A stretch of DNA of 64,000 nt from Terriglobia bacterium (GCA_965263045.1 CBDHGK010000041.1:1909514-1973513), one strand, 5' to 3'; shown: positions 11,259 to 61,537, counted from the first letter of the stretch. The notes: generated by a model not told the origin, from the sequence alone. Made by a program: numbers and translations.

Positions 11259-11523
11259 CGATCCGTTACGGGGAAATCTGAAGGCCGTGACAACGAGCTT
11301 GCGGGCGGGATACCTGCGTAAGAACGGGGTTCCCTACAGTGAAAACAGCATTGTCACAGAGTATTTCGACCTGATCACCGGGCCCTCCGGTGAGGAATGG
11401 CTCGTTGTTTTGTCCGAGGTTACCGACCCCTTGTACCTGGTCGCCCCGTTCATTACGAGTACGCAGTTCAAGAGGCTTCCCGACGACACCGAGTGGAATC
11501 CGACGCCCTGCTCAGCCCGATGA
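11259..11523 (+). pseudogene. secreted protein family X, paralog B, 3' fragment
   Basis: In-frame DPLRGN ... AGYLRKNGV ... VTDPLYLVAPF, homologous to the paralog A 3' fragment. Confidence 0.55.
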
Positions 11524-17061: not shown

Positions 17062-17347
17062 CAACAAAAGACTCTGGGGATTCAACCCGAGCGCGATAAT
17101 TTCGGATCCCGATTGCAGGTGCGCTCCATGAGCGCACAGAACTGAAGTTCATCAAATTGCGTGCGGTCGCAGACCACGCCGGCGGTTCGACGGTCCGAGC
17201 GTTGGCCAAGGTCAGTAAACCCATCATCTGTGGTCCCGGAAATCTTCGTGTCCTGCAATGAGACATCGGGATCGTGGAGGGAACATAATGCGATTCACAC
17301 GCGACAATCTGGCGCAAAACTTGACGAATCGGCCGGGGAAATCAGCC

Positions 17348-18367
17348 ATGAGACGCTATTTGCTTTCTATGTTCTGCAGCCTTTCTATACTCGCCTCCTG
17401 GATCGCACAGGAGGCGCGGGGGCAGGAGGCGACCGCTTTGGCCCACGTAGACGCAGCCAGAGCCGCCGCGTCCGAACCGGGGCTCTATGACTACACCCTT
17501 ACGTTCGATCTGCTCTGTACCGAGAGGGAGCCACGTGAACCGGAGCCACCGAGGCCTGCCGATACTACGATCCGCGCGGCACCGGAGCGCTCCGAATGGT
17601 ATGTCGAGCCGGTGAAAGTCTTTGACAACGTGTTCAATGTCGGGACCGGCTTCTATGTTTGGGCCATCACGACATCGGACGGAATCATTCTGCTAAATTC
17701 GGGCAGGGATTACGCCGCTGAAACCGTCGTCGAAGGACTCGAAAGAGTGGGTCTCGATCCGGCGAACGTCAAATGCGTCATCATCCACACCCCGGATATC
17801 CGGCACTATGGCGCGGCCAAACTATTTCAGGACCGCTATCGATCGCGGATCATGTTGTCCGAAGCGGATTGGAACGTCATCGAGGCGACACCGGAGGTCC
17901 CCGAGAGGCTGAAGCCCAGGAAAGACATCGTCGTGACCGATGGCCAGACCCTGACGTTGGGTGACACGACGCTGACCCTCTATGTCACGCCGGGCAACAG
18001 TCCGGGCACGCTTTCCACGCTGGTTCCTCTCCGTGACGGGAGCCGGCGGCATGTCGGTCTCCTGATCGGAGGCCGGGACTGGGACGCCGTGGAGCAGGGA
18101 GTCGTGTATTTCTCGAGTGAAGAAGTTGCCATGACTACCTACAAGGCTTCAGCCAGTCGTTTGCGGGACATTGCAGCCCGGGCCGGCGCGGATGTCTTTC
18201 TGTCGGTCCGTTCGCTGTACGATCGAGAAGCCGACAAGGCCCGCGTATTGATGGAGCGCAGACCCGGGGACCCGCATCCTTATGTAAACGGGAGCGCTAT
18301 TGACCGCTATCTGACGGTGACGAGCGAATGTATGGATGCCCAGTTGGCGTGGAGGGCGATACCGTAG
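17348..18367 (+). CDS. metallo-beta-lactamase-fold protein, divergent, secreted
   Basis: Signal peptide. MBL-fold pattern (ILLNSG ... HTPDIRHYG) without a canonical HxHxDH. Confidence 0.45.
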   Translation: MRRYLLSMFCSLSILASWIAQEARGQEATALAHVDAARAAASEPGLYDYTLTFDLLCTEREPREPEPPRPADTTIRAAPERSEWYVEPVKVFDNVFNVGTGFYVWAITTSDGIILLNSGRDYAAETVVEGLERVGLDPANVKCVIIHTPDIRHYGAAKLFQDRYRSRIMLSEADWNVIEATPEVPERLKPRKDIVVTDGQTLTLGDTTLTLYVTPGNSPGTLSTLVPLRDGSRRHVGLLIGGRDWDAVEQGVVYFSSEEVAMTTYKASASRLRDIAARAGADVFLSVRSLYDREADKARVLMERRPGDPHPYVNGSAIDRYLTVTSECMDAQLAWRAIP

Positions 18368-18436
18368 CACGGCATGCGAGTCGCGTGCGGGTGCAATACG
18401 AAACGTTTCAGATCCGTAGAGCCACAGGAGGACGAC

Positions 18437-19264
18437 ATGCCTGACAGCGCATGGGAAGAATTGGACGGCGGCACGCAGGACGCCTGGGAAGACCAGTTCC
18501 AGGATCCCGACACGGATTTCAGCCAGCCGCACCGGCGGGACGAATCCAGGGAGACACTCGACGACGGGACCCTTATCGACACGACGGTCGACACATACGC
18601 CACTGTGAATGTTGAAGGACGCGAGTATGCGGCTAGCCTGGTCCACAAGTGCAACAAATGCAATGGCGGGCACGTCGATTCGCTCAGGGCCGTCGAAGGA
18701 TTCACCGTGGACATTCCCTACACTCCGCTCCACGTGTCCGACAAGAAGTTCGGACAGGGCAACGGACATTTGTATTCCGAGGTGAAGATTACGGGGCATC
18801 TGCTGCGCCGGGTCGAAACGCGCACGCGCCGAACGCCACAGGCCGCCCCGCAGGTGGAGATCGTCTGGGAACGCAAGGAACTCGACCATGTGGAGCAGCG
18901 GGACCTGGTGGTACTGGAGGAATTCGGTTCGATCGTCGACTGCATTCTGGGAGTCGAGGAATCGTCGATCAGCTACGCCGTGCCTGATACCGAGATGTTT
19001 GCACTGGCCCTGGCCCGTGTTCCGATTCTTGCCGATGACGTGAGCTGGACCGACCAGGGCCGTGTGATTCCTGACCTCGCCGAGGCCCTTGCGGGCATCG
19101 AGGGGCCCGTGTTCCGATTTGTGGGAGGGACCGGTGATGCCGAAATGTTTGTCGAACACCAGGTCGGCAAGCAGAGGGTCGAACTGGGGCGGGTGTCACT
19201 GGATGTTTCCCTCGACGGCCGGCATGTGGTCGCCAAAGTGTACACACCGGGAGAGCCCTGTTAA
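18437..19264 (+). CDS. hypothetical acidic protein with CNKCNGGH motif
   Basis: SD aggagg and ATG at 18437. GC3-rich codons. The antisense ORF 18149-19159 is judged spurious. Confidence 0.45.
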   Translation: MPDSAWEELDGGTQDAWEDQFQDPDTDFSQPHRRDESRETLDDGTLIDTTVDTYATVNVEGREYAASLVHKCNKCNGGHVDSLRAVEGFTVDIPYTPLHVSDKKFGQGNGHLYSEVKITGHLLRRVETRTRRTPQAAPQVEIVWERKELDHVEQRDLVVLEEFGSIVDCILGVEESSISYAVPDTEMFALALARVPILADDVSWTDQGRVIPDLAEALAGIEGPVFRFVGGTGDAEMFVEHQVGKQRVELGRVSLDVSLDGRHVVAKVYTPGEPC

Positions 19265-19785
19265 TGCGACTCGCCGAGCGCAACGTGCGGGCATGTTGCC
19301 TGGTTGGTGGCCTGCCCCCCGGGGATTTGTGAGCGTGATGCACGATATCCCGCTGAGCATGCCTTTGCCGAGACGACGCGTACCCGGAATAATCGGTCCA
19401 ACCGTTCTGACTCAGAATTCAGAGACTCTCCAAATGACCAGCCCTTACTGAGTGCGACATTCTGAATCCAGACATTGCGGCCTGGGAAAACGTCTGCACC
19501 GTAAATGACGGCCCAGTCGCGGAGGATCACCTACGGCGAAACGTCTTCCCGGATACCCGCGATTCGCCGTTCGGGGGACGGCTTTGCGCTGGTGTGGAAC
19601 GCGGTTCAATTGCGCGAGAATGGACCAGTGCATGATGCCGCCGGTAAGGGCTCGGAGATAATGTTCGGGCTCGTGCGGTGATTGAAGGGGCCCTGCGCGA
19701 GGGCAGGTGATGCCTGAGAATGGATCGGAAAAAACAGACACTGCGCCGATCGAGGGGACCACTGAATGTCAACCGGAAGGCGGGT

Positions 19786-20049
19786 TCACTCAATACAGAT
19801 CTTGCAGGGTCGATATCCGGCGCCGAGGGCTTCGCCCAGGTCTCTGAATACGCGCGTCAGTTTTTTCGAATCGTAATATCTGCAGCCCGTCTGGTGCAGG
19901 GTCTTCGACCTGTGGCTCCCACGGTAGGGTCCGGGTCCCGGTTCTTCGGCCTTTTTTCTACCGGCTGATTTGTGAAGCAATACGCCGGCTCCCGCAGCAC
20001 CCGCCGCGGTCGCGACCAAACCGATCACAAGTTTCTTGGTCTTTCCCAT
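19786..20049 (-). CDS. small membrane-anchored protein with Ada N-terminal zinc-binding-like motif
   Basis: N-terminal TM helix, then H..GCRYY ... RVF ... AGYRPCKIC, resembling the Ada_Zn_binding pattern. Confidence 0.4.
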   Translation of the reverse strand: MGKTKKLVIGLVATAAGAAGAGVLLHKSAGRKKAEEPGPGPYRGSHRSKTLHQTGCRYYDSKKLTRVFRDLGEALGAGYRPCKICIE

Positions 20050-21531: not shown

Positions 21532-22691
21532 GTGTAGTCCGTCACAGTTAATGTAACTTATTCAGCTTTCCTACGTCTGAGTATATATGAGGAGAGCACC
21601 GACGATTAAATTGGACATTCCTGTGCGGAAGGAACTGGAGCGACTGAGCCGAAGCCGCAGTGTGGCGGTCCGGTTGGCGGAACGATCTCGAATTGTCTTG
21701 CTGGCCGCCGGGGGTCTGGACAATCAGGAGATCGCTGCCAAGTTGGACATCACTCGTCAAAAGGCCGGACGTTGGCGCGATCGTTTCGTTGAAGATGGCC
21801 TCGGGGGAATCGAAAAGGACGCTTCCCGCAGTGGACGGATTCCCTCGATCGGCCGCCGGAAGCGGGCCCGGATCGTGAAGAAGACGGTCGAAGGGAAGCC
21901 TCCGAACGCCACGCACTGGAGCCGGTCCTTGATGGCCAGGGCAACCGGCGTCAGCGAGTCCACGGTAGGGAGAATCTGGCGGGCTCATGGCTTGAAGCCT
22001 CATCTGGCACGCACCTTCAAACTTTCCAACGACAAACAATTTGTCGAGAAGTTGGAGGATGTGGTCGGTTTGTATCTGAACCCTCCGGAAAACGCCATTG
22101 TTTTGTCCTGCGATGAGAAGAGCCAGATGCAGGCCCTGGACCGCACGCAACCCGGGTTACCTCTGAAGAAGGGGCGGTGCGGCACCCTCACCCACGACTA
22201 CAAACGCAACGGGACGACCACGATGTTCGCCGCGCTCAATACGCTGGACGGCTCGATTATCGGGACCTGTATGCCGAAGCATCGTCATCAGGAATGGATC
22301 CGGTTTCTCAATCAGATCAAACGTTCCGTGCCGAAAGACAAACAGATCCATATCATTTGCGACAACTACGCCACGCACAAACATCAGAAAGTCGTCAACT
22401 GGTTGAAGCGCAACACGCGCTTTCATGTGCACTTCACACCGACCAGTGCATCCTGGCTGAACATGGTCGAACGCTTCTTCCGGGATCTTTCCGAACAACG
22501 GCTTCGGCGCGGGGTTTTCCATTCGGTTCCTGAGCTAATCCAGGCCGTGGAGGAATATGTCGGGGGTCACAATCAGAACCCGAAGCCCTTCATTTGGACC
22601 GCAACGGCTTCCGATATTCTTGAAAAAGTTCAACGTGCCCGAAAGAAGCTCGATAAGTTACAGTCTGTTTGACGGGGGCCACTAGCTGAAG
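21532..22691 (+). mobile_element. IS630-family (Tc1/mariner-like) insertion sequence, 1160 bp, TA target duplication (21530-21531 and 22692-22693)
   Basis: Terminal inverted repeats GTGTAGTCCGTCACAGTTAATGTAACTTAT / GTGGCCCCCGTCAAACAGACTGTAACTTAT. Excision restores AAG CTA GCT GAA (K L A E) in the host gene. Confidence 0.85.
21587..22672 (+). CDS. IS630-family DDE transposase, 361 aa
   Basis: N-terminal HTH followed by a DDE_3-like core, of the kind annotated as IS630 transposases. Confidence 0.85.
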   Translation: MRRAPTIKLDIPVRKELERLSRSRSVAVRLAERSRIVLLAAGGLDNQEIAAKLDITRQKAGRWRDRFVEDGLGGIEKDASRSGRIPSIGRRKRARIVKKTVEGKPPNATHWSRSLMARATGVSESTVGRIWRAHGLKPHLARTFKLSNDKQFVEKLEDVVGLYLNPPENAIVLSCDEKSQMQALDRTQPGLPLKKGRCGTLTHDYKRNGTTTMFAALNTLDGSIIGTCMPKHRHQEWIRFLNQIKRSVPKDKQIHIICDNYATHKHQKVVNWLKRNTRFHVHFTPTSASWLNMVERFFRDLSEQRLRRGVFHSVPELIQAVEEYVGGHNQNPKPFIWTATASDILEKVQRARKKLDKLQSV

Positions 22692-28985: not shown

Positions 28986-30098
28986 ATGAAATGGACCAGT
29001 TTCGCAGCAGTGGGCGCACTCCTTGTCCTGTCGGTGTCAACGGTGGCCGCCGCGGGTCAGGAACTGCGGACACCGTGGGGCGACCCGGACCTGCAGGGGA
29101 TCTGGAGTAATCCCTACGTGACACCGCTGGAACGGCCGGAAGAGTACGGCACCCGGGAGTTCCTGACGGAAGAAGAAATCCTGATCGCCGAGTCGGAATT
29201 GCTGGAACAGTCCCAACTGCCGGGTCGTGACAGCCGGAGTGCGGCAGGGACGGAAAGAGATGTGGCCCTCGCCTACAACGACCACTGGTTCGGTGATCCT
29301 TCCATGGACCGGGGCGCGCGCACGTCACAGATCATCGACCCGCCGGACGGGAGAATTCCACCGCTGACCCCCGAGGCACAGACCAGGATCGGAGCGCAGA
29401 GAGAGTATCTCCAGGCACTGCTCCAGGGTACTTCCGGGGGGCGGCCGGGACCGATCTCACCGCGGCGATCGGAACCGCCTCCCGACTACAATCTCGACCG
29501 AATGAATCGCACGGACGGTCCCGAGGACCGGAGCGGCCCTGAGCGGTGTTTCGGTTTCAGTCTGCCGGTGTTGCTCGAGTCCGGGACTTTCGGAGGGGTC
29601 GCGCGAATTGTTCAGTCACCCGGAAGCGTGGGCATCAACTACGATATGGGTCAGGGCCAGGGCTTCAGCCGTGTGATCCCCATCACGGATCGCCCACACC
29701 TTTCCCCACATATGCGGCAGCGCTACGGCGATGCCCGCGGCCGGTGGGAAGGAGACACGCTTGTCGTGGACGTGACCAATTTCCAGCAACAGACGGATTT
29801 CGAGGGTTCCCGCGAAAATCTGCATCTGATCGAACGCTACAGAAGGATCGATGCCGATACGCTGGCGTTCCAGGTCACAATAGAGGACCCGACGACGTTT
29901 ACAGCACCGTTCACCGCGGTCCAGGAGCTGACGAAGAACAGCGAACAGGCCAATCAGGTTTACGAGGGTGGTTGCCATGAGGGTAACTACGGCATGGTCG
30001 GCATGCTGGTGAACACGCGTGCCGCGGAAAGGGCCTTTGCGGAAGGGCGGGGTCCGGATCCGGCGACACAGGACAACGCCACCGGTGGCGGCGGGTAG
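28986..30098 (+). CDS. secreted protein family X, paralog 1 (intact)
   Basis: SD ggagga and ATG at 28986. Signal peptide. Sequence DLQGIWSNP ... GRWEGDTLVVDVTNF ... IERYRRIDADTLAFQVTIEDPTTFTAPFT. Confidence 0.6.
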   Translation: MKWTSFAAVGALLVLSVSTVAAAGQELRTPWGDPDLQGIWSNPYVTPLERPEEYGTREFLTEEEILIAESELLEQSQLPGRDSRSAAGTERDVALAYNDHWFGDPSMDRGARTSQIIDPPDGRIPPLTPEAQTRIGAQREYLQALLQGTSGGRPGPISPRRSEPPPDYNLDRMNRTDGPEDRSGPERCFGFSLPVLLESGTFGGVARIVQSPGSVGINYDMGQGQGFSRVIPITDRPHLSPHMRQRYGDARGRWEGDTLVVDVTNFQQQTDFEGSRENLHLIERYRRIDADTLAFQVTIEDPTTFTAPFTAVQELTKNSEQANQVYEGGCHEGNYGMVGMLVNTRAAERAFAEGRGPDPATQDNATGGGG

Positions 30099-30114
30099 TC
30101 GGCCGAAGACCGGA

Positions 30115-30681
30115 ATGTTTCTTATCGCTTTCCTCGAATCTCTCGCCGAGTCTCCGTGGAGCATCGGGCTCCATGAGTCGCGATACGCCTACCCCCTCAT
30201 CGAATCGGTTCATGTCTGGGCGCTGTTTTTGTTTGTCGGTCTCGTGGTCGTGTTTGACCTGCGTCTCGTCGGCTGGATTATGCCGCGCGTGGGGGTGCGG
30301 GAGGTTTACCGGCGACTGATACCGTGGACCATAGCCGGCTTCGTCATCATGGTTATCAGCGGAGCAATGCTCTTTTCCGCGATACCCCTGCGCTCCTATC
30401 AGAACATTTTCTTCCGCGTTAAAATGATCTTCCTGGTGCTGGCCGGTTTGAATGTCTGGGTCTTCCACTCGGGAATCTACCGGCGTGTGGCCACATGGAG
30501 CCTGGAGGCGGTGCCTCCCAGGTCAGCCCGGATTGCCGGAGCTCTTTCCCTGGTGCTGTGGGTCGGCATCATCTTTTCAGGAAGAATGATTGCGTACAAC
30601 TGGTTTGACTGTGACCGACAGCCACAACCGGCCATCATCAATTATCTGACCAACTGCGTGCCGGTCGAGTCCGAGTACTGA
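30115..30681 (+). CDS. 4-TM membrane protein, paralog a
   Basis: ESLAESPWSIGLHESRYAYPLIESVHVWAL ... DLRLVG. Stop overlaps the start of the next paralog. Confidence 0.55.
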   Translation: MFLIAFLESLAESPWSIGLHESRYAYPLIESVHVWALFLFVGLVVVFDLRLVGWIMPRVGVREVYRRLIPWTIAGFVIMVISGAMLFSAIPLRSYQNIFFRVKMIFLVLAGLNVWVFHSGIYRRVATWSLEAVPPRSARIAGALSLVLWVGIIFSGRMIAYNWFDCDRQPQPAIINYLTNCVPVESEY

Positions 30682-31154
30682 TGTCGCTGCTGCCGTTCTT
30701 CGAGTGGTGCGAACAATTGCCCATTGGCGAGGCGATTCGGAATTCACTCTGGCTGTTTCCCGTAATCGAAGCCTTTCACCTGGTGGGTCTGGGCGTGCTG
30801 GGAGGCGCCGTGTTGCTGCTCGATCTGCGGCTGCTGGGCCTGGGTCTGAAGGGCCAGCCGGCGGACGAGGTCGCCAGGGCCGCCGAACCCTGGCTGCTGG
30901 GCAGTCTCGGGTTGATGCTCGCCTCCGGCTTTCCGCTATTTCTCTCGGAAGCGATCCGGTGCTACTACAGCACGGCCTTCTGGGTGAAGATGACTTCGCT
31001 GCTGCTGGTGATCCTGTTTACATTCACGGTGCGGCGTCGGGTCGCGCACGGGGCAGCATCGATACCCAAGCTGGAATGCCAGATTGCCGCCCTGGTCTCG
31101 CTGGCCTTGTGGGCAGGTGTGGGATGGGGCGGACGCTGGATCGGGTTTTCCTGA
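30681..31154 (+). CDS. 4-TM membrane protein, paralog b (tandem duplicate of 30115-30681)
   Basis: Shares EA.H..GL ... LLDLRLLG with paralog a. ATGA overlap with the upstream gene. Confidence 0.55.
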   Translation: MSLLPFFEWCEQLPIGEAIRNSLWLFPVIEAFHLVGLGVLGGAVLLLDLRLLGLGLKGQPADEVARAAEPWLLGSLGLMLASGFPLFLSEAIRCYYSTAFWVKMTSLLLVILFTFTVRRRVAHGAASIPKLECQIAALVSLALWAGVGWGGRWIGFS

Positions 31155-31176
31155 CTCCGCCCCTGCATTGGCCCGC

Positions 31177-31593
31177 TTACGGGCGTTCGACCGGTGCGCC
31201 TGTTCCCGACGATCCTAAGAATAACGTTCTTCCGTCGGGTAGGGTCAGGTCCCTGCCGTTCGCTCTCCGTGAGCCATCCTTCGCCCGGTAGCCATCAACG
31301 ACGATCTCGGTACCCGCTACGAGAGAGTCTCTCGTAAAGCCGCGCCGGTACAACACATTGGGGGTGCCGGCTTCAACGGCCCATCGTTCCATGGTCCCAT
31401 CAGGGAGTTCGACTTCGACGTGGATCCACGCGTGGGGATTGGTCCATTGCATCCGCACGACGGTGGCCGTGAAGTGGACCGGGTTGTTGGCGTCAAATTC
31501 GGCCGCGAAGGCGTGATGGGCCGACGCGGGCGCTGCGGCCAGAATCAGAATCGCGCCAACAATCGCGACGGTGATGGCTGATGTAGCTGACAT
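31177..31593 (-). CDS. small secreted HH/NPH-family protein, paralog 2
   Basis: SD aaggag and ATG at 31593. Signal peptide ending PASA, then HHAFAAEFD ... WTNPHAW. Confidence 0.6.
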   Translation of the reverse strand: MSATSAITVAIVGAILILAAAPASAHHAFAAEFDANNPVHFTATVVRMQWTNPHAWIHVEVELPDGTMERWAVEAGTPNVLYRRGFTRDSLVAGTEIVVDGYRAKDGSRRANGRDLTLPDGRTLFLGSSGTGAPVERP

Positions 31594-31655
31594 TGGGTGC
31601 GGTCTCCTTTTCATATTCACTCAGTTTAACTCGATTCACCGGGTTTTGCCGGACC

Positions 31656-32666
31656 TCAGGGTTCAACCGGCGGGTTGCCCGACCAATGTATTTCATAGAC
31701 ATCTTCACCCGGCGGTACCTTGCGCGTGATGTCGACATCCATCGTCCGGCCTTCCCAGCGCGTCACAAGGGGTTCGCTGCGCAGGTGGCCGTAGATGGTT
31801 TCCTCGACGTGTTCGAAGCATCGGAAGTCCAGGAGCTGGGCGTCGGGTTCCAGCCGGCGGTAGAGCGGCAGACTGATGGTCCACGGTCGCGTGAACACCT
31901 TGGAGTCTTCAATCGTTGCTTGGTAAAGGATCGCATCTCGGCTGATGGGAGTGTAGCGTTCCTCAACTTCCAGCGCGTCGCTGTGAAAATTACCGGACCT
32001 GTCGAACCAGGTGTAGGGCGTGAAGTTCATAACATCGACAACCAGCGTGTCGCCCTCCCAGCGCCCGAGGGAGTATCCCATGAAGGCCTCGCCCGGATAG
32101 GGGTCGACGGTGTCAAGATTGATCGTTCTCTGGGCATTGGCAAACTCGAAAACCATCATGACTTTGTTCGTACTCTGAACAATCTGGAACGGATAGGGCA
32201 GATACATCGCACGCGGCACTCCCGGCATATAGCATTTGATTTCCGGGTCGCGGTCCAGCCAGTGGACTTGATTATCGATCTTCCGCTCCGCCGCCCAGGG
32301 TTGGTAGGGAATCTCGTCGCCTTCGACCACTCCCATGCCCGGCGGGGCCCAACCAATGGTGCCGAGCGCAACGACCGGGGCCGCCAGCACCGGTACATCG
32401 GGGTACACGCCGGCCTGGGCCACCAACGGCCGTGCGTCGTGGGTCTGAAGGTCCCAGTTGGCCGTGCTGTGGGTCTGCCATATCCCACTGAAGTCGGGTT
32501 TGCCGTCTGCGGTGCGTACGATTGATGACGCGCCCGCTGAGTCCATGTTGAGGCCGGACATCGGCGACGTCAGCATCCACATCAGCGATGCCCCACCCAC
32601 GATGATGGCGGTCACGATCACGATTATTGCGTCTCTGAATCTATTTTGCATGGATCGAGTGACCAC
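31656..32666 (-). CDS. secreted protein family X, paralog 2 (intact)
   Basis: DFSGIWQT ... GRWEGDTLVVDVMNF ... EERYTPISRDAILYQATIEDSKVFTRPWT. GTG at 32666 or ATG at 32651. Confidence 0.6.
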   Translation of the reverse strand: MVTRSMQNRFRDAIIVIVTAIIVGGASLMWMLTSPMSGLNMDSAGASSIVRTADGKPDFSGIWQTHSTANWDLQTHDARPLVAQAGVYPDVPVLAAPVVALGTIGWAPPGMGVVEGDEIPYQPWAAERKIDNQVHWLDRDPEIKCYMPGVPRAMYLPYPFQIVQSTNKVMMVFEFANAQRTINLDTVDPYPGEAFMGYSLGRWEGDTLVVDVMNFTPYTWFDRSGNFHSDALEVEERYTPISRDAILYQATIEDSKVFTRPWTISLPLYRRLEPDAQLLDFRCFEHVEETIYGHLRSEPLVTRWEGRTMDVDITRKVPPGEDVYEIHWSGNPPVEP

Positions 32667-33192
32667 CTCAAGTGATTGACTTCATGGGTTTGGCCGTCAA
32701 TAGTTTCCGCATGGCGCTCGATGCCGGCCGGGATCTCCGAGCATGTTACATCGGCTGCATGTTGCTTCATCAAAACAACAAAGTCAACATAGTCAGTTCC
32801 CAGGCTGTGACTCATTCATAAATCCGGCGCCGGGCCGGTTCAAAGCTGAGGCCGAACGCCCGATCGGATGTCGGGCCGGGAGCAACCGCGCCCGGGCATC
32901 GAGGAATCCGAACCCCTCCCGAAGGACCTGGAAACCGCGCCCAGTGGCCAGTTCCAGAACCTGTACGTCCGTTTGTCGGCCCCGATCAATCGATCGGGCT
33001 CGGGATTCGCTGAGGTGTCGGGCATCGTGATCGACCAGAGGAGTGTCTTGGTCACTGAACTGCAAGGTGGTTTTCAGTGGAGTGCCCCGATACTTGTTGC
33101 GATAGCGAAGCCATATTCGGGCCGTTCCAAAATGCGCCGGTCGGAAAACCCGATCCGGCAATGGTGATCGCTCCGGGCAGGAGGCGGCTCGT

Positions 33193-33600
33193 TTGCACCG
33201 ATCGACAAGTTTTCAACGACTTGCAATAGTATCTGCCATCGGATTGATGTTGCTGGTGGCGTGTCGCGCCCCGTTTCAGGTGCGGGTGACGGATCTGCGT
33301 GGTGGGGCCCGACCTTATTTCTATGAAGGTGAGTCCCTGAAAATGCACGTCCACTGGGGTCAGGAAGCCAGGGACATGGCCGTAATCTGTCAAGTGCTTG
33401 ACACGTATCGGGGAGAAACAAAGTGGCAGGGGCGTTCCACCGTGCCGAACGTGGAAACCGGGTCCCTCGAGGTCTTGTCGTTTGATCCGCCGCTCCCGCT
33501 GAACGGCCAACTCGGGTTGACCCGGGGTGGGTATCGATGGATATGCGAACTCGAAGACGCCGCGCGGTCGTCGGTCTACTTCGACATCATTGAGCGATAG
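33193..33600 (+). CDS. hypothetical lipoprotein
   Basis: TTG start. Signal peptide with LLVAC lipobox. No recognizable homology. Confidence 0.35.
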   Translation: MHRSTSFQRLAIVSAIGLMLLVACRAPFQVRVTDLRGGARPYFYEGESLKMHVHWGQEARDMAVICQVLDTYRGETKWQGRSTVPNVETGSLEVLSFDPPLPLNGQLGLTRGGYRWICELEDAARSSVYFDIIER

Positions 33601-33711
33601 CAGCCACCTCATAGAGCGCTAACAGCCACCTCCAGGCCAGCAGCGGTCAGGAAGTCGTGGATGCCCCCCTGCATGCACGCTCGAACCGCGGATCGGGTTC
33701 ACCGGGGTGCT

Positions 33712-34527
33712 TCACGGGTTCTCGGTCTCATCGAAAACTTCTCGGAAATACAGGGCATCCTGCGTATCCACACAGATCGATTCCCGAATGCGGTCTTCTG
33801 GAGGCCGTCTCCGCAATGTCACCGTTTTTGACCACGGGCCGGAAAGGACGTTCGGGTCTTCGACCGTGGCCTCATACACCAGGGTGTTTGCGTCGCTCAT
33901 GTGATAGCGCTCGACGACATGTAGATCCTCAGTGTGGAACGTCCCGAGTCTGTGAATCCAGGTCTCATCGTTAAAGCCGATGACATCGACAACGAGGGTG
34001 TCTCCGTCCCATTCGGCCACCGAGTCTCCCATGTAGGTTGGAAACCAATCATCGGGGTGGTCGCGTCCGTCTGTTGGAATGATCCGGAATCGGTGTTCGG
34101 CTTCGTAAAGAAATATTACTTCTCCCGGAATCTGAACGATTCGGAGCGGATGTGGATTGCCCGTCTGACGGGGGATGCCGCGGGGAATGCAGCGTAGCAT
34201 CGGATCGTCGGCCTCGGTGAATGCCCGCACACGGTCCATCACTTCCGGCCGGTAGGGAAGACCTCCGCCTGGATTTGCGAGCCTGTTCGCCGAGGACCGC
34301 TCTTCTTGTTCGAGAGTGAAGTTCGATATGTCCAGCATGTTGGTCTGCCAGATGCCCGAAAAATCGACCCGGCCATCGGGGGCACGGGGTATCAATTCAG
34401 ATGCGTTGTCGGTCGCGACGCGTTCGTTCCCGTTCTGCGGCAAGACAGCGGCAATGGCCCCGGGCAGCAGGACCAGAGCCGTCAACGCCAGCGTCGTGAC
34501 GGCGGCGACCAGACGGCGATGGGTCAT
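33712..34527 (-). CDS. secreted protein family X, paralog 3 (intact)
   Basis: DFSGIWQT ... AEWDGDTLVVDVIGF ... VERYHMSDANTLVYEATVEDPNVLSGPWS. Confidence 0.6.
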   Translation of the reverse strand: MTHRRLVAAVTTLALTALVLLPGAIAAVLPQNGNERVATDNASELIPRAPDGRVDFSGIWQTNMLDISNFTLEQEERSSANRLANPGGGLPYRPEVMDRVRAFTEADDPMLRCIPRGIPRQTGNPHPLRIVQIPGEVIFLYEAEHRFRIIPTDGRDHPDDWFPTYMGDSVAEWDGDTLVVDVIGFNDETWIHRLGTFHTEDLHVVERYHMSDANTLVYEATVEDPNVLSGPWSKTVTLRRRPPEDRIRESICVDTQDALYFREVFDETENP

Positions 34528-34586
34528 GTTGGGGTTCCCCCTAAATAGACGTGGTAGACATGGGCCCGAGTCCGGGCAGTCGATGC

Positions 34587-34994
34587 CTATTGGTTTTCGC
34601 TTTCTGAACTGGCGCCGATCGGAAGAATCCGTCCGTCGGGCAGCGTCATCCGGTTGCCGCCCGCAACCGGCCGGGCTCCGACTCGAGCATGCCAGCCCGT
34701 GACGGTCACGGTGTCTCCCGGACTCACCGTGTTCCGGGACCAGCCCTGCCGGACCATCATCGTTGGAGGATATCCTTCAAAGCCCCAGGTGACGACTTCG
34801 CCGTTTGGCCCGGCAACGTCGACGTAGAAGTACATGTGCGGGTTTTTCCAGTCTACCTTGTTGATCACGCCCGTCACGGTGAAGGGCTGGTCCTTGTCGA
34901 AGATCGCTGCAAACGAGTGATGGGCACGTGCCGGCGTTTCACACAGGACCAGGACGCATACGATGACCAGAGTGCCAGAAATACGTTTCAACAT
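34587..34994 (-). CDS. small secreted HH/NPH-family protein, paralog 3
   Basis: SD aaggag. Signal peptide ending ARA, then HHSFAAIFD ... WKNPHMY. Confidence 0.6.
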   Translation of the reverse strand: MLKRISGTLVIVCVLVLCETPARAHHSFAAIFDKDQPFTVTGVINKVDWKNPHMYFYVDVAGPNGEVVTWGFEGYPPTMMVRQGWSRNTVSPGDTVTVTGWHARVGARPVAGGNRMTLPDGRILPIGASSESENQ

Positions 34995-40150: not shown

Positions 40151-40996
40151 CTACGGCAGGCTTCGGAAGATACTGTCAAGGAAGCGCTCGGCGTTTCCCT
40201 GCCACGAGGCGTAAGCGGCGAGAACCCCCTCCTCCTGAATCTGGTCCGAACTCATTCCCGCGGATTTCTTCTGTCGAACCATTTCAACGGATTGATCGAG
40301 CATGGTGTGAAAACGCCGAAGGTCGTTGACATTCGCCCTGGCCGGCCCGTGGCCGGGAATGATTCTGGCGTCAGAAGCGACCTGCTCCAGAACGTCGCCA
40401 ATATTGTCGGTGTATCCGATTGCGTTTCCGCCTCCGTCGATATCGATGAACGGAAACGTCTCGACCCAGAAGTGGTCACCCAGGTGGACAACATTGGATT
40501 CGGAAAAGAAAACGATAACGTCCCCATCCGTGTGTCCAGGCGGATAATGGACGATCCGGATTTCTTCGCCGTTCATGTGCAATGAGACGGCATCATCGAT
40601 CGTGACGATCGGCCAGGCAGCCCGGGGTTGATCCATCAGACGCCGACGCACGTTGCTGTGCGCAATGATCGGGGCCAGGCTGCCGAAGAACTCGTTGCCG
40701 CCTGTATGGTCCCCATGGAAGTGGGTGTTCACGACAAAGCGGAGAGCCCCGTCGCTGATATCGGAGAGTGCGGACTCTATTCGCGGTGCGAGAGGGGCAA
40801 ACTGGTCGTCCACGATCAGGATCCCATCCTCGCCTGCCGAGACGCCGATGTTCCCGCCACTCCCCTCTATGACATGGATCGGGCCTGTCAAAGATGTTGT
40901 CCGGATCTCGACGTCGTCGAAGTTTCGCTGCGCTGCGATTTGAGCGCTCAGAGTGGCGAACAACGCACAACACACAATTACCCAAAATTTCTTCAT
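40151..40996 (-). CDS. metallo-beta-lactamase-fold hydrolase with canonical HxHxDH motif (subclass B3-like), secreted
   Basis: Signal peptide. HFHGDHTGG. SD aggaga. Confidence 0.7.
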   Translation of the reverse strand: MKKFWVIVCCALFATLSAQIAAQRNFDDVEIRTTSLTGPIHVIEGSGGNIGVSAGEDGILIVDDQFAPLAPRIESALSDISDGALRFVVNTHFHGDHTGGNEFFGSLAPIIAHSNVRRRLMDQPRAAWPIVTIDDAVSLHMNGEEIRIVHYPPGHTDGDVIVFFSESNVVHLGDHFWVETFPFIDIDGGGNAIGYTDNIGDVLEQVASDARIIPGHGPARANVNDLRRFHTMLDQSVEMVRQKKSAGMSSDQIQEEGVLAAYASWQGNAERFLDSIFRSLP

Positions 40997-41270: not shown

Positions 41271-43127
41271 ATGGTCATTAAGACGGGACTCCGCGCGGCA
41301 GGCCACCTGGAAGCTTACCGGGGGCGGATTTCACAAAACTTCGAATTGCCGATTCACATCGGTCGTCTGGTTGCGCAGTGGGACGAACCCGAATTCGTCC
41401 CTGCGCCGAACGCATCCCGGATGCGTGACCACGACTACGTCGTCGGCTTGGTCCACAAGGGCGTTGCCGTCGCGTTCCCCATGTGGGTAGCCGACAACTA
41501 TCACGTTATCAATTGTATGATCGCCGGGGATCCCGTGGTCTATACGACTTGCGAGCGCTGCCAGTCGGGGTCGGCTTTTCTGTCGCTTCTTGACGGCAAG
41601 CCGGTCAAGTTCAGTGCTCTCGGAATGTACAACGCCTCGCTGACGATGACCGATCGGGCCGATTTCTTACAGAGGGACGGCAGTCTGTGGCTGCACTATG
41701 AAGGTGTTTGCATCGATGGGAAACATCGCGGGACGTTCCTGGCCCAGATACCGACGTTTCATACCATGTGGGCTGAATGGAAGACGAATCATGCGGATTC
41801 GCTGGTATTGATCGAGCCTCGCGACAGGCACCATCGCGACGCGCGCCACGGGCACGGCCGTGAGGAGTACTTCGCCAGGCCCGGGATGGATCCGCCGCTG
41901 GTTCTGACGATTACCGGTGAGTTCGACGAGCGTTATCCGGAAAACGAGATCGTGCTGGGTGTCAATTCGGACGAGATGACAAAGGCCTATCCGCTGAAAG
42001 AGGTGAAGAAGAGCGGGAGTGTCGTGCATGACCGGATTGGTGACGTGCCTATCGTCGTGCTTGCAGGGCCCCGACCGGAGCAGGTCACCATGGCTGCTTA
42101 TTCTTGCCTGCTCGACGGAAGAGCGCTGACCTTTGGTCTGGACGGAGCGGCCTTCGTGGATCGGGAAACCAGGTCCATGTGGGACATCGAGGGTCTGGCG
42201 CTCGAGGGTCCGCTGGCCGGACGGCGCCTTGAGGCCCTCCGCTGGCAGTACGTCCGCTGGCACGCCTGGTTCTATCCCCACCGCGGCACCCGGCTTTATC
42301 TTCACGAGCGCACACTGCCGGCGTATCCGGGCTCCAATCCGGACGTCGGCTCGTTTCGGCCCATACTCGATGGACTGACCCGCCTGGAGCGGCCGATGAC
42401 TCTCGAGGGTGCGGTGTTCGATCTGAGCCTTCCGCATGAAGCGCCGGAGGGCCTGACCTTGCGTGTCGGCAATGACCGGCTCAATCTGTACCGTTTCAAC
42501 ATGGCCGAAGCCGCCGAGGACTATGTGCAGATGGAGGGAGCCTGGTTCTGTTTCCCGATCAGCAAGAAAGTCGGCAAAAGATACTCCCGCCGCGTGGGTG
42601 TTTTTGTGATCGAGTCGGATCCGGAGAACCAGTATGCCGACCCGTCACAGTTCGTTCGCCTTCCCGACCCGGCCATTGCCTGGTCGGACATCGTCACCGA
42701 CGTGAAATTGGACGAGATCATGCCGCCCGAGCTTCTGGACGGTGCGGGCAAGACGCAACACGGTTTCGCTGGACTCTTCGAGTGTCTGCGGCGGGCAACT
42801 TACGATGTCGTCGAAACCGCTTTTTTACCGCATACACAGTTGCGATTCGGAACATTGAACGCAGTCGCGGCGACGATCAACGCCGATCGCTTCGCCATCT
42901 ACAAGTGCCCCGATGGCGAACCGGATCCTGAAAGAGGTGCCTCATGCGATTCAGATCGATCGCTGGATTCTGCGCTCGATCCCCGCCATCATGTACCGGG
43001 ATCCCATCTACGAAATGGGACAGTTGGCCGAGAGCGAGATCCAGTGGTCCGATCTGCTGTCCGACAAGCGGTTTGCCGCCACCATCCAGTCGTATTGCCA
43101 CGGGTGACGACGGACTCTCCTGGCTAG
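41271..43127 (+). CDS. protein with two tandem DUF3179-like domains
   Basis: AFPMWVADNYHVINCMIAGDPVVYTTCERCQSG and a second repeat KAYPLKEV ... VVLAGP, resembling DUF3179. Confidence 0.5.
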   Translation: MVIKTGLRAAGHLEAYRGRISQNFELPIHIGRLVAQWDEPEFVPAPNASRMRDHDYVVGLVHKGVAVAFPMWVADNYHVINCMIAGDPVVYTTCERCQSGSAFLSLLDGKPVKFSALGMYNASLTMTDRADFLQRDGSLWLHYEGVCIDGKHRGTFLAQIPTFHTMWAEWKTNHADSLVLIEPRDRHHRDARHGHGREEYFARPGMDPPLVLTITGEFDERYPENEIVLGVNSDEMTKAYPLKEVKKSGSVVHDRIGDVPIVVLAGPRPEQVTMAAYSCLLDGRALTFGLDGAAFVDRETRSMWDIEGLALEGPLAGRRLEALRWQYVRWHAWFYPHRGTRLYLHERTLPAYPGSNPDVGSFRPILDGLTRLERPMTLEGAVFDLSLPHEAPEGLTLRVGNDRLNLYRFNMAEAAEDYVQMEGAWFCFPISKKVGKRYSRRVGVFVIESDPENQYADPSQFVRLPDPAIAWSDIVTDVKLDEIMPPELLDGAGKTQHGFAGLFECLRRATYDVVETAFLPHTQLRFGTLNAVAATINADRFAIYKCPDGEPDPERGASCDSDRSLDSALDPRHHVPGSHLRNGTVGRERDPVVRSAVRQAVCRHHPVVLPRVTTDSPG

Positions 43128-44290
43128 GCGGTCACAAACGAACGCATGCGGGCCTGGACAAAATCCTGAAGAAGGCACTGCGTCTGGCACCCGGTGCAGC
43201 GTGTCGGTTCGGGACGTGGGACTCCTGGATCGCGACGCAGGTGACGGATCATCAGGGCTGACGCGCGCTCGGCCAACTCCAGGTACCATTCGCCCGACGG
43301 GGGACGGTGGCCGTGGAACCGGGTACCGGAGGAGGGGCTCCAGACCAGCGGAATGCTTGCAACCCCTTCCTCGGCCAGCTCCTGGACGCCTTCGAGCAGC
43401 AATTCCATCGGCTCGACGCCCGCGACGAAACCCGAGTAGATCCTTCCTCCGGCACCGAAGATCTCCACCGCGACGCGCAATGCCTCTCGATACTTCTCGT
43501 AGCCGAGCCGCTTCTCCTTTCCCGGGCAGACCGCCCGGAAGAACGCCGGATCGAAGCACTCGAGGTTGAAGCCCAGGCCCCTGATTCCCTGGCGATGCAG
43601 CCGCTCCAGATCGCGGAGATTCTCGGGGGGCGTCATGATCGCCGTGCCGGGAAGCTCCGTCATTCCCATCGCTTCCCGCATGCTCTCGAGATAGGTTTCC
43701 AGAATTCCGATTTCCCGTTCCCCGGGGAGAATGCCGCCAGTGATCTCGAAGTGACGGGCCACTCCCGACTCAAAGGCGACACCGAACACCTCGCCCACTT
43801 CCGCCGCCCGCTTTTTCATCATGACTTCGTCGTACTGCTTGAAGGTGTAGTTGAGATTGCAAAAGGCGCACTGCGAGCCGTCCGCAAAGAGCACACAGGC
43901 GTTCGTGTGAGACACGGCAATGCAATCCTCACCGACAAGTTCCGCGATGCTGGTCATGGGCGTGCCGCCCGAAGTCTTCCGGTCGTAAAACGCGGGCCGT
44001 TCGAGCCACTCGAGGGTCGATAGCTCGTGTTGCCCTTTCTCGAGAATCAGCTGGTCTCCCCGACGCTGCACCCGGTACGGAGAGTGCTCGTTGAGCCGGA
44101 CCTGCACGACCGTGCCTTGCGGAAGACGCATCTCCGCCGGACAAGCCTGATCATGATGGAGGTCGAAATCGTATTCGAACAGATGATGCACCTGCTCCTT
44201 GAACTGCGTCCCAACGCCCTCGTAGGCCGCATCGGCAATCTGAATACCATCCACCAGAAGCCGGGTTTTCAACAATAGTTCTTCACGCAT
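43124..44290 (-). CDS. putative radical-SAM-like Fe-S enzyme with noncanonical Cys spacing
   Basis: CVLFADGSQCAFC (Cx9Cx2C) plus C-terminal CTGCQTQC. Start at internal Met at 44290, directly after the stop of the acyltransferase gene. Confidence 0.4.
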   Translation of the reverse strand: MREELLLKTRLLVDGIQIADAAYEGVGTQFKEQVHHLFEYDFDLHHDQACPAEMRLPQGTVVQVRLNEHSPYRVQRRGDQLILEKGQHELSTLEWLERPAFYDRKTSGGTPMTSIAELVGEDCIAVSHTNACVLFADGSQCAFCNLNYTFKQYDEVMMKKRAAEVGEVFGVAFESGVARHFEITGGILPGEREIGILETYLESMREAMGMTELPGTAIMTPPENLRDLERLHRQGIRGLGFNLECFDPAFFRAVCPGKEKRLGYEKYREALRVAVEIFGAGGRIYSGFVAGVEPMELLLEGVQELAEEGVASIPLVWSPSSGTRFHGHRPPSGEWYLELAERASALMIRHLRRDPGVPRPEPTRCTGCQTQCLLQDFVQARMRSFVTA

Positions 44291-44300
44291 GATCGTTCCT

Positions 44301-45224
44301 CTAGGGTAAAGCGAACTTTCTTCTATAACCTCGGGGCGACATATAAGTCGGGTGACGGCGGATGAAGCCCTCGATGCGTTCTGCATAGGCCTGCATCAAA
44401 TGGCTTACCTGCTGAGATCTCGACAACTCTTGTGGACACGACAGCGGCTCCTGAACCTCGATGCGGAAGCGCGCAGTCGGATCGATGCCTGCGAAGCACG
44501 GCAGGATCACGGCCCGGCTCAGCAGCCCAAGCGTGATGCCACCGGTCGGGAACGCGTATTTCTTGCCGCAAATCTCGACGGGCTGCCGGTGTTCGCCCGC
44601 GCCACCATCGCCGGCGATGTTCACGAAGCCGTTTTTCCGAAGGTGATCGTATGCCTTCTTCAAGTACTGCACGCCCAGATCTTCCTGCCCGAACAGCTCA
44701 TCGTCGTCAACATGAAATCGCGCACGACGCCAAAGCGAAAGGCGGTCTTTCAGGGACCTGCTGTCCGATTTCGGCAAGCGCATCGTAAACAGGTGATACA
44801 CCGGGTACTCCTGTGTTCGCAAGTACCACCTCAGAAGCCGTGGGAAGCCGAGATGGCTCACCAGCAGGACGACACCGTTGCCTCCCTTCCGGGCCTCTTC
44901 CAGCCGAGACCACCCGTCGATATCAAGAAACGACTCGAAATCCCGCGCATCCCGCGCCATGATGAGGGAGTTCAGATAGCGCTTGAGCTCCGCGGTCACG
45001 AACAGTTGTTTTGCCAGTCGCTGGTGATCATCCGGGGTCGTGTCATCGGGGAGCGCCTCGCGCAACCAACGATCCGCCATGACTCTCGAGTGACGTTGAA
45101 GACGATATTGCATTCGCCCTCGAAAGCGCAGCCAACGGACAATGAGCGGAAAACGCAAGCGCCCCAGAATCTCGAGCTCGAGACAAAACAACAGATACTT
45201 GGTCAATCGGAATAGGTTTTTCAT
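44301..45224 (-). CDS. LpxL/HtrB-like lipid A biosynthesis acyltransferase family protein
   Basis: N-terminal TM helix, then LVSHLGFPRL ... NIAGDGGAGE pattern of Lip_A_acyltrans. Start at internal Met at 45224. Confidence 0.6.
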   Translation of the reverse strand: MKNLFRLTKYLLFCLELEILGRLRFPLIVRWLRFRGRMQYRLQRHSRVMADRWLREALPDDTTPDDHQRLAKQLFVTAELKRYLNSLIMARDARDFESFLDIDGWSRLEEARKGGNGVVLLVSHLGFPRLLRWYLRTQEYPVYHLFTMRLPKSDSRSLKDRLSLWRRARFHVDDDELFGQEDLGVQYLKKAYDHLRKNGFVNIAGDGGAGEHRQPVEICGKKYAFPTGGITLGLLSRAVILPCFAGIDPTARFRIEVQEPLSCPQELSRSQQVSHLMQAYAERIEGFIRRHPTYMSPRGYRRKFALP

Positions 45225-45225
45225 C

Positions 45226-45930
45226 TCAAGCTCGACGGGCGAGGACCCGCCAGAAGAACGCCTTTGAAACTCGAAGCCATTCGGCGGGCCGGGCCGCGTC
45301 GCGTGAGAGGGCCAGCTCGAGCTCTTGGTGCAGGAGCGATTCGATTCGAAAAGCCCGGAAGAAGTCGCGTACCTCGCCTTCCGATGAGAAATGATGGGGT
45401 ATTCCGGCCTCACCGGCACCATTGAAGACGTGGGGAAACATGCCCGGGCTGATGTACGTGTGTGACTCCACGGATTCGCCCCGACCATACATACGATTCT
45501 CGCGGGACGGCAGCGTCACATAACAAATACCGCCGCCCCGGAGCTTGGAATGCATTAGCGCAACCATCGCCTTCACCCTTTCGGTCGTTCCATGGTAGAT
45601 GCTGTTGAATGCAATCACGGCATCGAAGTACCCATTGGGATAGGGAATATCTTCCATTTCGCCGCACCACAGGGTTGCCGTGCGCCCCTGTGACTCAAGC
45701 CATCGCCTGCATATCGTGATGCCCGAGTCCGAATGATCCATCCCGTAGGCTTCGAAACCCTGACGCGACAGGAGGTCGATATGCCTGCCGATACCGCAGC
45801 CGACGTCGAGGACTCGCGTGATCTCTTCCTTTGCTTTCCAGTCTGAGACCAGTGCCTGAACACCACGGTCCGGTATGCTCCAGAGCCGCTTGGCGCCGTC
45901 GCCTTCCCAGATTTCCTGCCACTGCTCCAT
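45226..45930 (-). CDS. class I SAM-dependent methyltransferase
   Basis: VLDVGCGIGRH (motif I). ATG at 45930 abuts the stop of the upstream ligase gene. Confidence 0.7.
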   Translation of the reverse strand: MEQWQEIWEGDGAKRLWSIPDRGVQALVSDWKAKEEITRVLDVGCGIGRHIDLLSRQGFEAYGMDHSDSGITICRRWLESQGRTATLWCGEMEDIPYPNGYFDAVIAFNSIYHGTTERVKAMVALMHSKLRGGGICYVTLPSRENRMYGRGESVESHTYISPGMFPHVFNGAGEAGIPHHFSSEGEVRDFFRAFRIESLLHQELELALSRDAARPAEWLRVSKAFFWRVLARRA

Positions 45931-45931
45931 G

Positions 45932-47407: not shown

Positions 47408-47691
47408 CCGACGCTTTCTTGCTTCGCCTCGGGCGTGTTCCCCAGCTCCCGATGAACGAGCTCGGCGAGCGTGTGCAGTGACTCGAAATGCTCGATGGTC
47501 AAGAGGCTGTCATCGAGAACGATTCCGAATTCGTGCTCGATCGTGACGACGAACTCCAAGAGCGCAACGGAGTCGAGGGAGAGCCCCTTTTTCACCAGAG
47601 CGACATCGGCGTCGATATTGCCAGGATTCGCGTCCCTCAAGACCTGCTGCAAGACGGTCTTGAGACGTTCTTCAACTGTTTTGATTTCCAA
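47404..47691 (-). CDS. acyl carrier protein
   Basis: GLSLDSVALLEFV phosphopantetheine-attachment motif. TTG start preceded by aggagg. Confidence 0.7.
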   Translation of the reverse strand: MEIKTVEERLKTVLQQVLRDANPGNIDADVALVKKGLSLDSVALLEFVVTIEHEFGIVLDDSLLTIEHFESLHTLAELVHRELGNTPEAKQESVG

Positions 47692-47959
47692 GTTTGCTCC
47701 TCCTGCGGGCCGCTCGAAGCGATTGTCCTGGCGGGATTCTAGAATACTTTTTGGTTAGCCCCCAGGATTACTAATCGAGTATAGGAGAAAGGCGCGCCTT
47801 CCCGTTATAGAATCTGGTCGGAATGGCCACTTGTGGGGTTAGGTCGCAGTCCCCGGTGGTGGGGTCGAATAAATCAACGGACTGAACCGCGCTGCGTTTG
47901 ACTGCGTGACACTGAAAACTCTGGCACACTAACTGGAGGTACGACGGTAAGACCACTCG

Positions 47960-49099: not shown

Positions 49100-49189
49100 A
49101 TCACGCGCGGACTCGACCCGGACCGATTCTCCTGCCGACGGGCTATTCAGCAGGCAGGGCGATCCGATCAAGACGCAGCCGATAGCGGA

Positions 49190-50065: not shown

Positions 50066-50114
50066 GCGCCCGTCAGGATTTGTGCCAGGCTTTGTTCGCT
50101 GAGAGTGTGAGTTT

Positions 50115-51926: not shown

Positions 51927-52016
51927 GGGGATGGAGGCGGCCCGCATTCGGGGTGATACGGTCACTTGGAAACGCACACGCTGGAACGGCTCAAGACAAG
52001 CTGGGGGTAACTGAAA

Positions 52017-61465: not shown

Positions 61466-61537
<72 letters not shown>

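Follow-up and report, generated by a model that had tools for sequence, protein, structure and literature searches.

Which system is encoded by a compact cluster of duplicated secreted and membrane proteins in a Terriglobia bacterium? The cluster occupies 6 kb within a 64-kb stretch of Terriglobia bacterium DNA, called the window in the following, from whose start all coordinates are counted. Here, the original prediction reported three intact paralogs of a large secreted family, two paralogs of a small secreted family and a tandem of membrane proteins with four transmembrane (TM) segments. This was confirmed by the listing of open reading frames (ORFs), which recovered all genes named there at or near their reported places, as well as by paralogy in pairwise BLASTP. 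We conclude with high confidence that these genes are real and that they form one instance of a widespread, conserved and uncharacterised envelope module assembled from three families. The anatomy of this module is solid and comprises secreted calycin barrels, subtype-matched His-His OB-fold (oligonucleotide/oligosaccharide-binding fold) proteins and, often, a CopD-like membrane pair.

A scan of all ORFs of the window with family hidden Markov models (HMMs) revealed exactly five large genes (A to E), three small genes (S1 to S3) and two membrane genes (M1 and M2; Table 1). The large paralogs A, B and C are intact, whereas D and E are each split by an insertion sequence (IS). Therefore, the distant paralogs that had been placed outside the 6-kb cluster hold in part: the small gene at 8826 is present as described, and the large genes at 5235 and 9286 are present as IS-split N-terminal fragments and not as intact genes. 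Signal peptides or N-terminal anchors are predicted on every soluble member of the module, which fits the proposed periplasmic localisation.

Conservation of the module in other genomes

An alignment of the large family was scanned against one genome per species, which yielded at least 589 loci, and the best 80 of these were analysed. A reciprocal sample consisted of 80 metagenome loci chosen by DUF6152, the family of the small proteins. The best 80 large-family loci belong to the Acidobacteriota (Vicinamibacterales and Bryobacterales), the Gemmatimonadota and the Gammaproteobacteria. A DUF6152 gene is present in 64 of these 80 loci, and in the reciprocal direction the large gene was found in 60 of the 80 DUF6152-picked loci (35 of 43 among those of at least 4 kb). 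The adjacency of small and large genes, which the original prediction had noticed in the window, is therefore kept in other genomes, and it is specific for the subtype. DUF6644, the family of the membrane proteins, occurs in 20 of the 80 large-family loci and nearly always as a pair. The canonical operon reads B>A>small>, with the membrane pair following or facing it when present.

The specificity of the pairing is pronounced. S1-type small genes lie beside an A/B-type large gene 68 times and beside a C-type gene 3 times, whereas S2-type small genes lie beside a C-type gene 56 times and beside an A/B-type gene 12 times; in 46 metagenome and genome loci the C-type large gene follows the S2-type small gene. 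Subtypes of the small and of the large family have diversified together, S1 with A/B and S2 with C. This ties each calycin subtype to its own DUF6152 subtype and represents a testable pairing rule.

Furthermore, the five-gene unit of B, small, M2, M1 and A is kept in two contigs harboring an 85%-identical B (L162 and L163), where the flanks are entirely different and the ortholog of A occupies the same position. The second arrangement of the window, D>MBL>S3>E, in which MBL denotes a metallo-beta-lactamase-fold gene, recurs in the locus L026 as E<, s<, MBL<, D<. Since the synteny, the subtype pairing and the five-gene unit all recur elsewhere, the window presents a conserved cassette in an IS-rich and slightly rearranged form. 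A megablast search of the 6-kb region against plasmids gave zero matches.

The large secreted family

On sequence level, B and C share 32% identity over 242 aa (E 1e-32). The other pairwise comparisons by BLASTP gave E-values of 5e-19 (A-C), 4e-16 (A-B), 1e-10 (C-D) and 1e-14 (D-E, 28% identity), and A is 34-36% identical to B and C. This paralogy is far beyond chance. The family motifs noted originally are indeed there, DFSGIWQT in B and C and GRWEGDTLVVDV.NF in A and B, together with ERY, EDP and PW.

When the ten proteins of the window were scanned, the large proteins obtained zero matches in Pfam or NCBIfam, and three profile searches of the family against the PDB were empty or returned noise only. 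This is in line with the earlier view that the large proteins match no characterised family. At E <= 1e-3, at least 8,000 homologs are present in a 90%-clustered database, none of which is named or carries a Pfam domain. The same threshold retrieved 16,959 representatives of 50%-identity clusters, 9,083 of them at E <= 1e-10. Informative fused domains are absent from the longer family members (408-531 aa). Soil Acidobacteriota, Gemmatimonadota and Gammaproteobacteria commonly encode the family, often with many copies per genome.

Across 60 diverse members, two Cys, a Gln, an Arg, the stretch G-x-W-x-G-x-T-L-V, Glu-Arg, Asp-Pro and a Trp are invariant or nearly so, and an invariant His is absent. 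The two invariant Cys may simply form a disulfide. In the AlphaFold2 (AF2) model of a large protein, the core at residues 160-270 reaches a predicted local distance difference test (pLDDT) score of 80-95. The predicted order of elements resembles that of fatty acid-binding proteins (FABPs), namely an N-terminal GxW strand, helices and then eight strands. In FABPs themselves, the barrel is ten-stranded and a helix-turn-helix joins strands A and B. The core of the family is therefore predicted to be a calycin (FABP/nitrobindin-like) beta-barrel with a helical insert.

The resemblance to calycins is found at fold level only. A comparison of a diverse large-family profile with the sequence of FABP4 using hhalign gave a probability of 1.2%, so that sequence homology to the FABPs, or intracellular lipid-binding proteins (iLBPs), was not found, and no sequence-level relationship connects the family to FABP/iLBP, nitrobindin/THAP4 or the lipocalins. 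The invariant, proximal heme-ligating His of nitrobindin/THAP4 has no conserved equivalent in the large family. The large proteins differ from calycins also in their length of 270-400 aa, their secretion, their long inserts and the two invariant Cys.

The small secreted proteins and the membrane pair

Originally, the families were thought to be uncharacterised. This stands for the large proteins, which remain unmatched, whereas the small and the membrane proteins are catalogued in Pfam, though likewise uncharacterised, as DUF6152 (PF19649) and DUF6644 (PF20349), respectively. The Pfam gathering threshold is 27 bits for both families. S1 (108.8 bits, E 1.5e-31), S2 (96.3 bits) and S3 (82.2 bits, E 3e-23) match DUF6152, and S1 and S2 align to each other with an E-value of 4e-31.

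In S1, S2 and S3 an AxA- or AxG-type signal-peptidase site directly precedes the two His residues, which bears out the mature HH N-terminus proposed for these proteins. An alignment of 114 DUF6152 sequences revealed that H1, H2, N27, P28, H29, W46 and E49 are invariant, and in 79 independent locus-derived sequences the 'AHH' is conserved to at least 90%. The fold is confidently predicted to be an OB-fold (pLDDT 86 for the DUF6152 model). The N-terminal His-His of DUF6152 is probably a metal site. Searches of the PDB by sequence and profile with the alignments of the small and the membrane families gave noise only; here, a match of DUF6644 to the PDB entry 6t84 was dismissed, as it aligned 38 residues at an E-value of 0.04 and lies below significance.

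Among the membrane proteins, M1 matches DUF6644 with 33.1 bits and M2 with 96.3 bits (E 2.7e-27), and the two align to each other with an E-value of 5e-15. In 35 DUF6644 sequences, H33 in TM1, G42, G83, F100, K103 in TM3, W144, G151 and R152 are invariant. The same alignment contains two ortholog types, M1 with a Cys-bearing tail and M2 with a GRWIGFS end, which are always paired. Natural in-frame M1-M2 fusions exist (P0394-P0396) and support reading M1 and M2 as a single unit of 8 TM or a heterodimer. Three other candidate fusions of about 350 aa (P0392, P0393 and P0397) were rejected since their Arg-rich, out-of-frame linkers look like frameshift artefacts.

A secondary match to DUF2214 (PF09980) is found in 12 of the 35 members (best E 3.2e-5), a match to CopD (PF05425) in 3 (best E 3e-4) and a weak match to UPF0093/HemJ in 1. 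This supports a relationship of DUF6644 to CopD and DUF2214 at the level of a sequence superfamily, not family membership. Among the 23 loci with a DUF6644 pair, most have it directly beside the small gene, an arrangement that the window shares.

At L161:5168-8927, the gene of one of the fusions, P0394 (308 aa), and a neighbouring operon point away from each other. The operon codes for a membrane protein of 171 aa, a small subunit of the Gluconate_2-dh3 type and a GMC oxidoreductase; this locus has no DUF6152 or large genes nearby.

Recurrent neighbours and regulation

Recurrent neighbours were defined by clustering the remaining ORFs of the 160 loci. A dehydrogenase dependent on pyrroloquinoline quinone (PQQ) is present in 24 loci; it is immediately adjacent to the module in 16 and co-directional in 10 of those (PQQDH>B>A>s>). 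The adjacent PQQ dehydrogenases are of several types, are heterogeneous with respect to lanthanide-type and Ca-type motifs and do not form a single ortholog group. Class-II cytochrome c' is encoded in 15 loci and lies beside the DUF6644 pair in 8 of these, e.g., as cyt c'>M1>M2. TonB-type outer-membrane barrels occur in 16 loci, CytoC_RC-like proteins in 9, NHL-repeat proteins in 8, a 486-aa CxxCH protein in 7, MBL-fold proteins in 5 and tannases in 5. In 5 loci the MBL gene adjoins module genes. Promoter and terminator scans gave signals no higher than those of shuffled controls.

In the contig L162, an extra A-type large gene (18111-19124, -) and the gene of a class-II cytochrome c' of 148 aa with a C-terminal CxxCH (19498-19944, +) are arranged divergently. 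A homolog of this cytochrome is absent from the window.

Proposed function and its alternatives

Handling of a metal or a substrate had been suggested for the cluster, and the invariant His-His as well as the weak CopD/DUF2214 relatedness fit to this; what we infer in the following concerns metal binding and the metal involved, physical contacts between the proteins, the direction of transfer and the ligand of the calycin. By analogy to described systems, the module may combine a histidine-brace-type metal protein, with copper as the candidate metal, with its cognate calycin and a membrane partner resembling CopD, and act as an accessory to periplasmic oxidoreductases. We put this forward tentatively, as the likeliest of the mechanisms considered, although its chance of being correct falls somewhat short of even.

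Here, DUF6152 would chelate a transition metal after signal cleavage, most probably Cu(II), via the free amino group and His1/His2, and the invariant His29 and/or Glu49 would complete a histidine-brace-type site. A metal role is proposed because a conserved His1 generated by signal cleavage is a documented chelator of 3d metals whatever the fold, as described for DUF4198, DUF6702 and the 'anglerases' on permeases (PMC12537917). The metal-bearing OB-fold would then partner its cognate calycin, S1 with B/A, S2 with C and S3 with D/E, and the calycin barrel would hold a small ligand. Where present, the DUF6644 pair would serve as the membrane partner of DUF6152, as CopD does for CopC or YcnI, a role suggested because the pairings CopC-CopD and YcnI-YcnJ in copper acquisition, each an N-terminal-His protein with a CopD-type membrane protein, are established (PMC12362106, PMC8424229). 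The cassette as a whole might be an accessory to neighbouring periplasmic and mostly metal- or cofactor-dependent enzymes, such as PQQ dehydrogenases, cytochrome c', MBL-fold and NHL-repeat proteins.

Several observations weigh against this copper proposal. In the DUF6152 model the first three residues have a pLDDT below 50, too low to judge the geometry of His1/His2 relative to His29/Glu49. The large-protein model is moderate overall (mean pLDDT 59.9), the family lacks an invariant His or Met, and its invariant potential metal ligands are the two Cys together with Glu and Asp only. The DUF6644 pair is found in only about a quarter of the loci, and the two locus samples were picked by similarity to B and S2, so that the frequencies are not free of bias. 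M1 and M2 of the window obtained no CopD or DUF2214 match even at E <= 10 and matched DUF6644 alone. The neighbouring PQQ dehydrogenase and MBL proteins are not copper enzymes. Furthermore, no Fur-, Zur-, CueR- or CopR-type operators and no enrichment of 8-mers were found in 93 upstream regions, and no metal riboswitch was detected, with Rfam on the whole window matching a tRNA alone.

One alternative is a ligand shuttle. The calycins could carry hydrophobic or anionic small molecules (substrates, products, scavenged PQQ or quinone) between TonB-type barrels in the outer membrane, enzymes of the periplasm (PQQ dehydrogenase, MBL, NHL, tannase) and the inner membrane, while DUF6152 would be a non-metal OB-fold adaptor or lid whose His-His has another role. 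The FABP/lipocalin-like fold, the invariant polar residues of the kind found in ligand pockets (Gln, Arg, Glu-Arg, Asp and Thr), and the heavy paralogy with subtype diversification, as in binding-protein families, argue for such a shuttle, as do the outer-membrane beta-barrel genes in 16 of the 160 loci and the varied hydrolase and dehydrogenase neighbours. Nevertheless, it leaves the invariance of His1-His2 at the signal-peptidase site, the NPH and E49 unexplained, as well as the CopD/DUF2214-like pair beside the small gene, and a single enzyme or transporter partner is never found in more than 15% of the loci. We consider a ligand shuttle unlikely, if worth serious attention. The assumption that there is no system at all, and that unrelated secreted paralogs came together by chance or by IS-mediated scrambling, would fit to the transposase-rich window and to its local order, which is rearranged compared to the canonical operon. 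This is so improbable that we exclude it, since the synteny data contradict it: the adjacency is conserved across Acidobacteriota, Gemmatimonadota and Gammaproteobacteria, the pairing is subtype-specific, and an identical five-gene unit with different flanks is present in relatives.

The membrane pair could also point to electron transfer. In this case, the DUF6644 heterodimer would bind heme b via the invariant His of TM1, as in HemJ/PgdH2, and form the membrane end of a redox chain from a PQQ/FAD dehydrogenase via cytochrome c', and possibly Cu-DUF6152, to DUF6644 and quinone, with the calycins binding quinone or substrate, similar to the paired genes of YceI and a cytochrome b561. Each DUF6644 subunit contains one invariant TM1 His, and one member matches UPF0093/HemJ weakly, a family whose HemJ is a b-type haemoprotein (PMC13564367). 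The genomic context agrees in some loci: in 8 of the 23 loci with a DUF6644 pair, cytochrome c' adjoins this pair or is co-transcribed with it, 10 loci have a PQQ dehydrogenase immediately upstream, and a fused DUF6644 is divergent from a GMC oxidoreductase and Gluconate_2-dh3 in a locus without the usual cytochrome subunit. However, most loci contain no cytochrome or dehydrogenase within 6 kb, and the window itself contains none; the PQQ dehydrogenases found adjacent are of mixed types, and the HemJ match is single and weak, with DUF2214 and CopD matches being more frequent. A Cys-free His/Glu site is furthermore atypical of electron-transfer copper centres. Taken together, we regard a redox chain as rather improbable.

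An extension of the copper proposal, for which we see only a slim chance, would make DUF6152 and its cognate calycin the two components of a copper oxidase or oxygenase in the periplasm. The OB-fold would carry the Cu brace, the barrel would provide a pocket for a small hydrophobic substrate, electrons would come from the PQQ dehydrogenase or cytochrome c', and DUF6644 would load the copper. Fungal lytic polysaccharide monooxygenases (LPMOs) pair with a PQQ-dependent pyranose dehydrogenase or a cellobiose dehydrogenase, and the oxidase would be a bacterial, small-molecule counterpart of this pairing. If true, this would represent a new class of histidine-brace enzymes on a fold never seen carrying one.

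Comparison with known systems

As a unit, the module matches no described system; two of its families are catalogued DUFs, and the libraries that were searched have no entry for the third, which is also the largest. A literature search found no papers naming DUF6152, DUF6644, PF19649 or PF20349, and nothing on a PQQ-dependent/lipocalin-like periplasmic gene cluster. Among known systems, the likeliest logic of the module resembles that of N-terminal-His metal-handling systems. Similar to CopC-CopD and YcnI-YcnJ, a small secreted protein with a mature N-terminal His is encoded beside a membrane protein of the CopD superfamily with 8 TM in total, here composed of two 4-TM DUF6644 proteins, which are sometimes fused. 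DUF6152 shares with the CopC/YcnI-type histidine-brace copper proteins the His at the mature N-terminus. In contrast to their cupredoxin-like/Ig-like beta-sandwich, it adopts an OB-fold in the model, and instead of the His/Asp/His set of CopC it contains His-His, NPH and a Glu. DUF6644 matches CopD and DUF2214 only weakly. Moreover, the Cop/Ycn operons have no counterpart of the calycin, which is an obligatory partner in the module, and no copper regulator or cuproenzyme is encoded near the latter. Since the fold of CopC/YcnI and a sequence relationship to FABP are both missing, we rate the module as new in kind.

The 'signal-strapped' N-terminal-His metalloproteins, namely DUF4198, DUF6702 and the 'anglerases' Ang-1/Ang-2 on HupE/UreJ permeases (PMC12537917), are similar in that cleavage exposes a conserved His1, the protein is periplasmic, the partner is permease-like and the fold is unrelated to LPMOs. 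They are Ig-like or beta-sandwich proteins, in contrast to the OB-fold of DUF6152, and their membrane partners belong to another family. Neither that study nor its supplements mention DUF6152. HemJ/PgdH2, a b-type haemoprotein counted in the same membrane superfamily (PMC13564367), and DUF6644 have in common that they are small helical membrane proteins with a conserved TM1 His; the match to UPF0093 in only 1 of 35 members, a weak one, and a module context without tetrapyrrole genes set them apart. A possible further likeness concerns YceI, a periplasmic lipocalin-like isoprenoid binder whose gene is paired with that of the cytochrome b561 YceJ: here too, the gene of a periplasmic calycin-type barrel lies beside that of a 4-TM, His-bearing membrane protein.

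If metal binding by DUF6152 were demonstrated, the OB-fold would be added to the short list of histidine-brace scaffolds. This would also provide a first functional handle on DUF6152, DUF6644 and a new calycin family that is found with quinoprotein dehydrogenases of the periplasm in soil phyla which have received little study.

Gene coordinates, insertion sequences and other genes of the window

Table 1. Module genes and the associated MBL gene in the window.
Feature	Position	Strand	Description
Large A	28986-30098	+	370 aa, cleavable signal peptide; A-type; C-terminal CHEGNYG motif; family HMM E 6e-90
M1, DUF6644	30115-30681	+	188 aa, 4 TM (hydrophobic segments); M1-type; Cys-containing C-terminal tail WFDCDRQPQ...C
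M2, DUF6644	30681-31154	+	157 aa, 4 TM; M2-type; C-terminal GRWIGFS; start overlaps M1 stop
S1, small, DUF6152	31177-31620	-	Mature N-terminus HHAF after ASA; 23 bp from M2, convergent
Large B	31656-32666	-	B-type; hydrophobic N-terminus (anchor or signal); same strand as S1 and 35 bp upstream of it
Large C	33712-34527	-	271 aa, signal peptide; minimal family form; 59 bp downstream of S2
S2, small, DUF6152	34587-34994	-	Mature N-terminus HHSF after ARA
Large D, IS-split	5235-7580	+	Coding 5235-5763 and 7213-7580; IS 5764-7204; duplicated target 7205-7212
MBL-fold protein, secreted	7593-8741	+	Between D and S3; PF00753 E 4e-7
S3, small, DUF6152	8826-9221	+	Mature N-terminus HHSL after AYG
Large E, IS-split	9286-11523	+	Coding 9286-9817 and 11267-11523; IS 9818-11258

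The start of B is likely at 32651, because a database copy (P0001) has 331 aa. The true start of S1 may be 31593, giving 138 aa as in relatives, and the S1 ortholog in L162 and L163 has this length. The 1-kb gap between B and C contains a gene for a predicted 135-aa lipoprotein with an LVAC lipobox (33193-33600, +) and no Pfam match; a homolog is present at L162:3374-3781, where it does not adjoin the module.

The element that splits D and E has a length of 1441 bp and is present in three copies of more than 99.8% identity, with the two copies in D and E inserted in - and + orientation, respectively, and the third at 53800-55240 (-). It encodes a Mutator-family (IS256-type) transposase (PF00872, E 6e-36), and all three copies lie between perfect target duplications of 8 bp, GGGTTATC in D, CGATCCGT in E and ACGGCATG at the third site; both the transposase and a duplication of 8-9 bp are as expected for the IS256 family. 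These near-identical copies with perfect duplications suggest a recent transposition burst in the window. Removing the IS and one duplicate in silico restores D (298 aa) and E (262 aa) in frame. The restored proteins align with A-C through the conserved motifs, and both fragments of D match the family HMM. The third copy interrupts a 652-aa MsbA-like ABC exporter, which could be restored in silico as well. The unusual IS richness of the window may explain the scrambled order of the module.

Transposases of other families are encoded at 12558-13973 (-) and 21587-22672 (+), the former of the DDE_Tnp_1_4 type and the latter an IS630-like DDE_3 transposase with helix-turn-helix (HTH) domains. Two further MBL-fold genes lie at 17258-18367 (+) and 40151-40996 (-), and the sole Rfam match is the tRNA gene at 61466-61537 (-). 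A cluster of envelope and glycan genes spans 43124-52000 and 56637-61193. It encodes a radical-SAM-like protein, a lipid A acyltransferase-like protein, an AMP-binding enzyme, two glycosyltransferases, two sulfotransferase-domain proteins, a PMT_2 protein and a GDSL lipase, and appears to be unrelated to the module.

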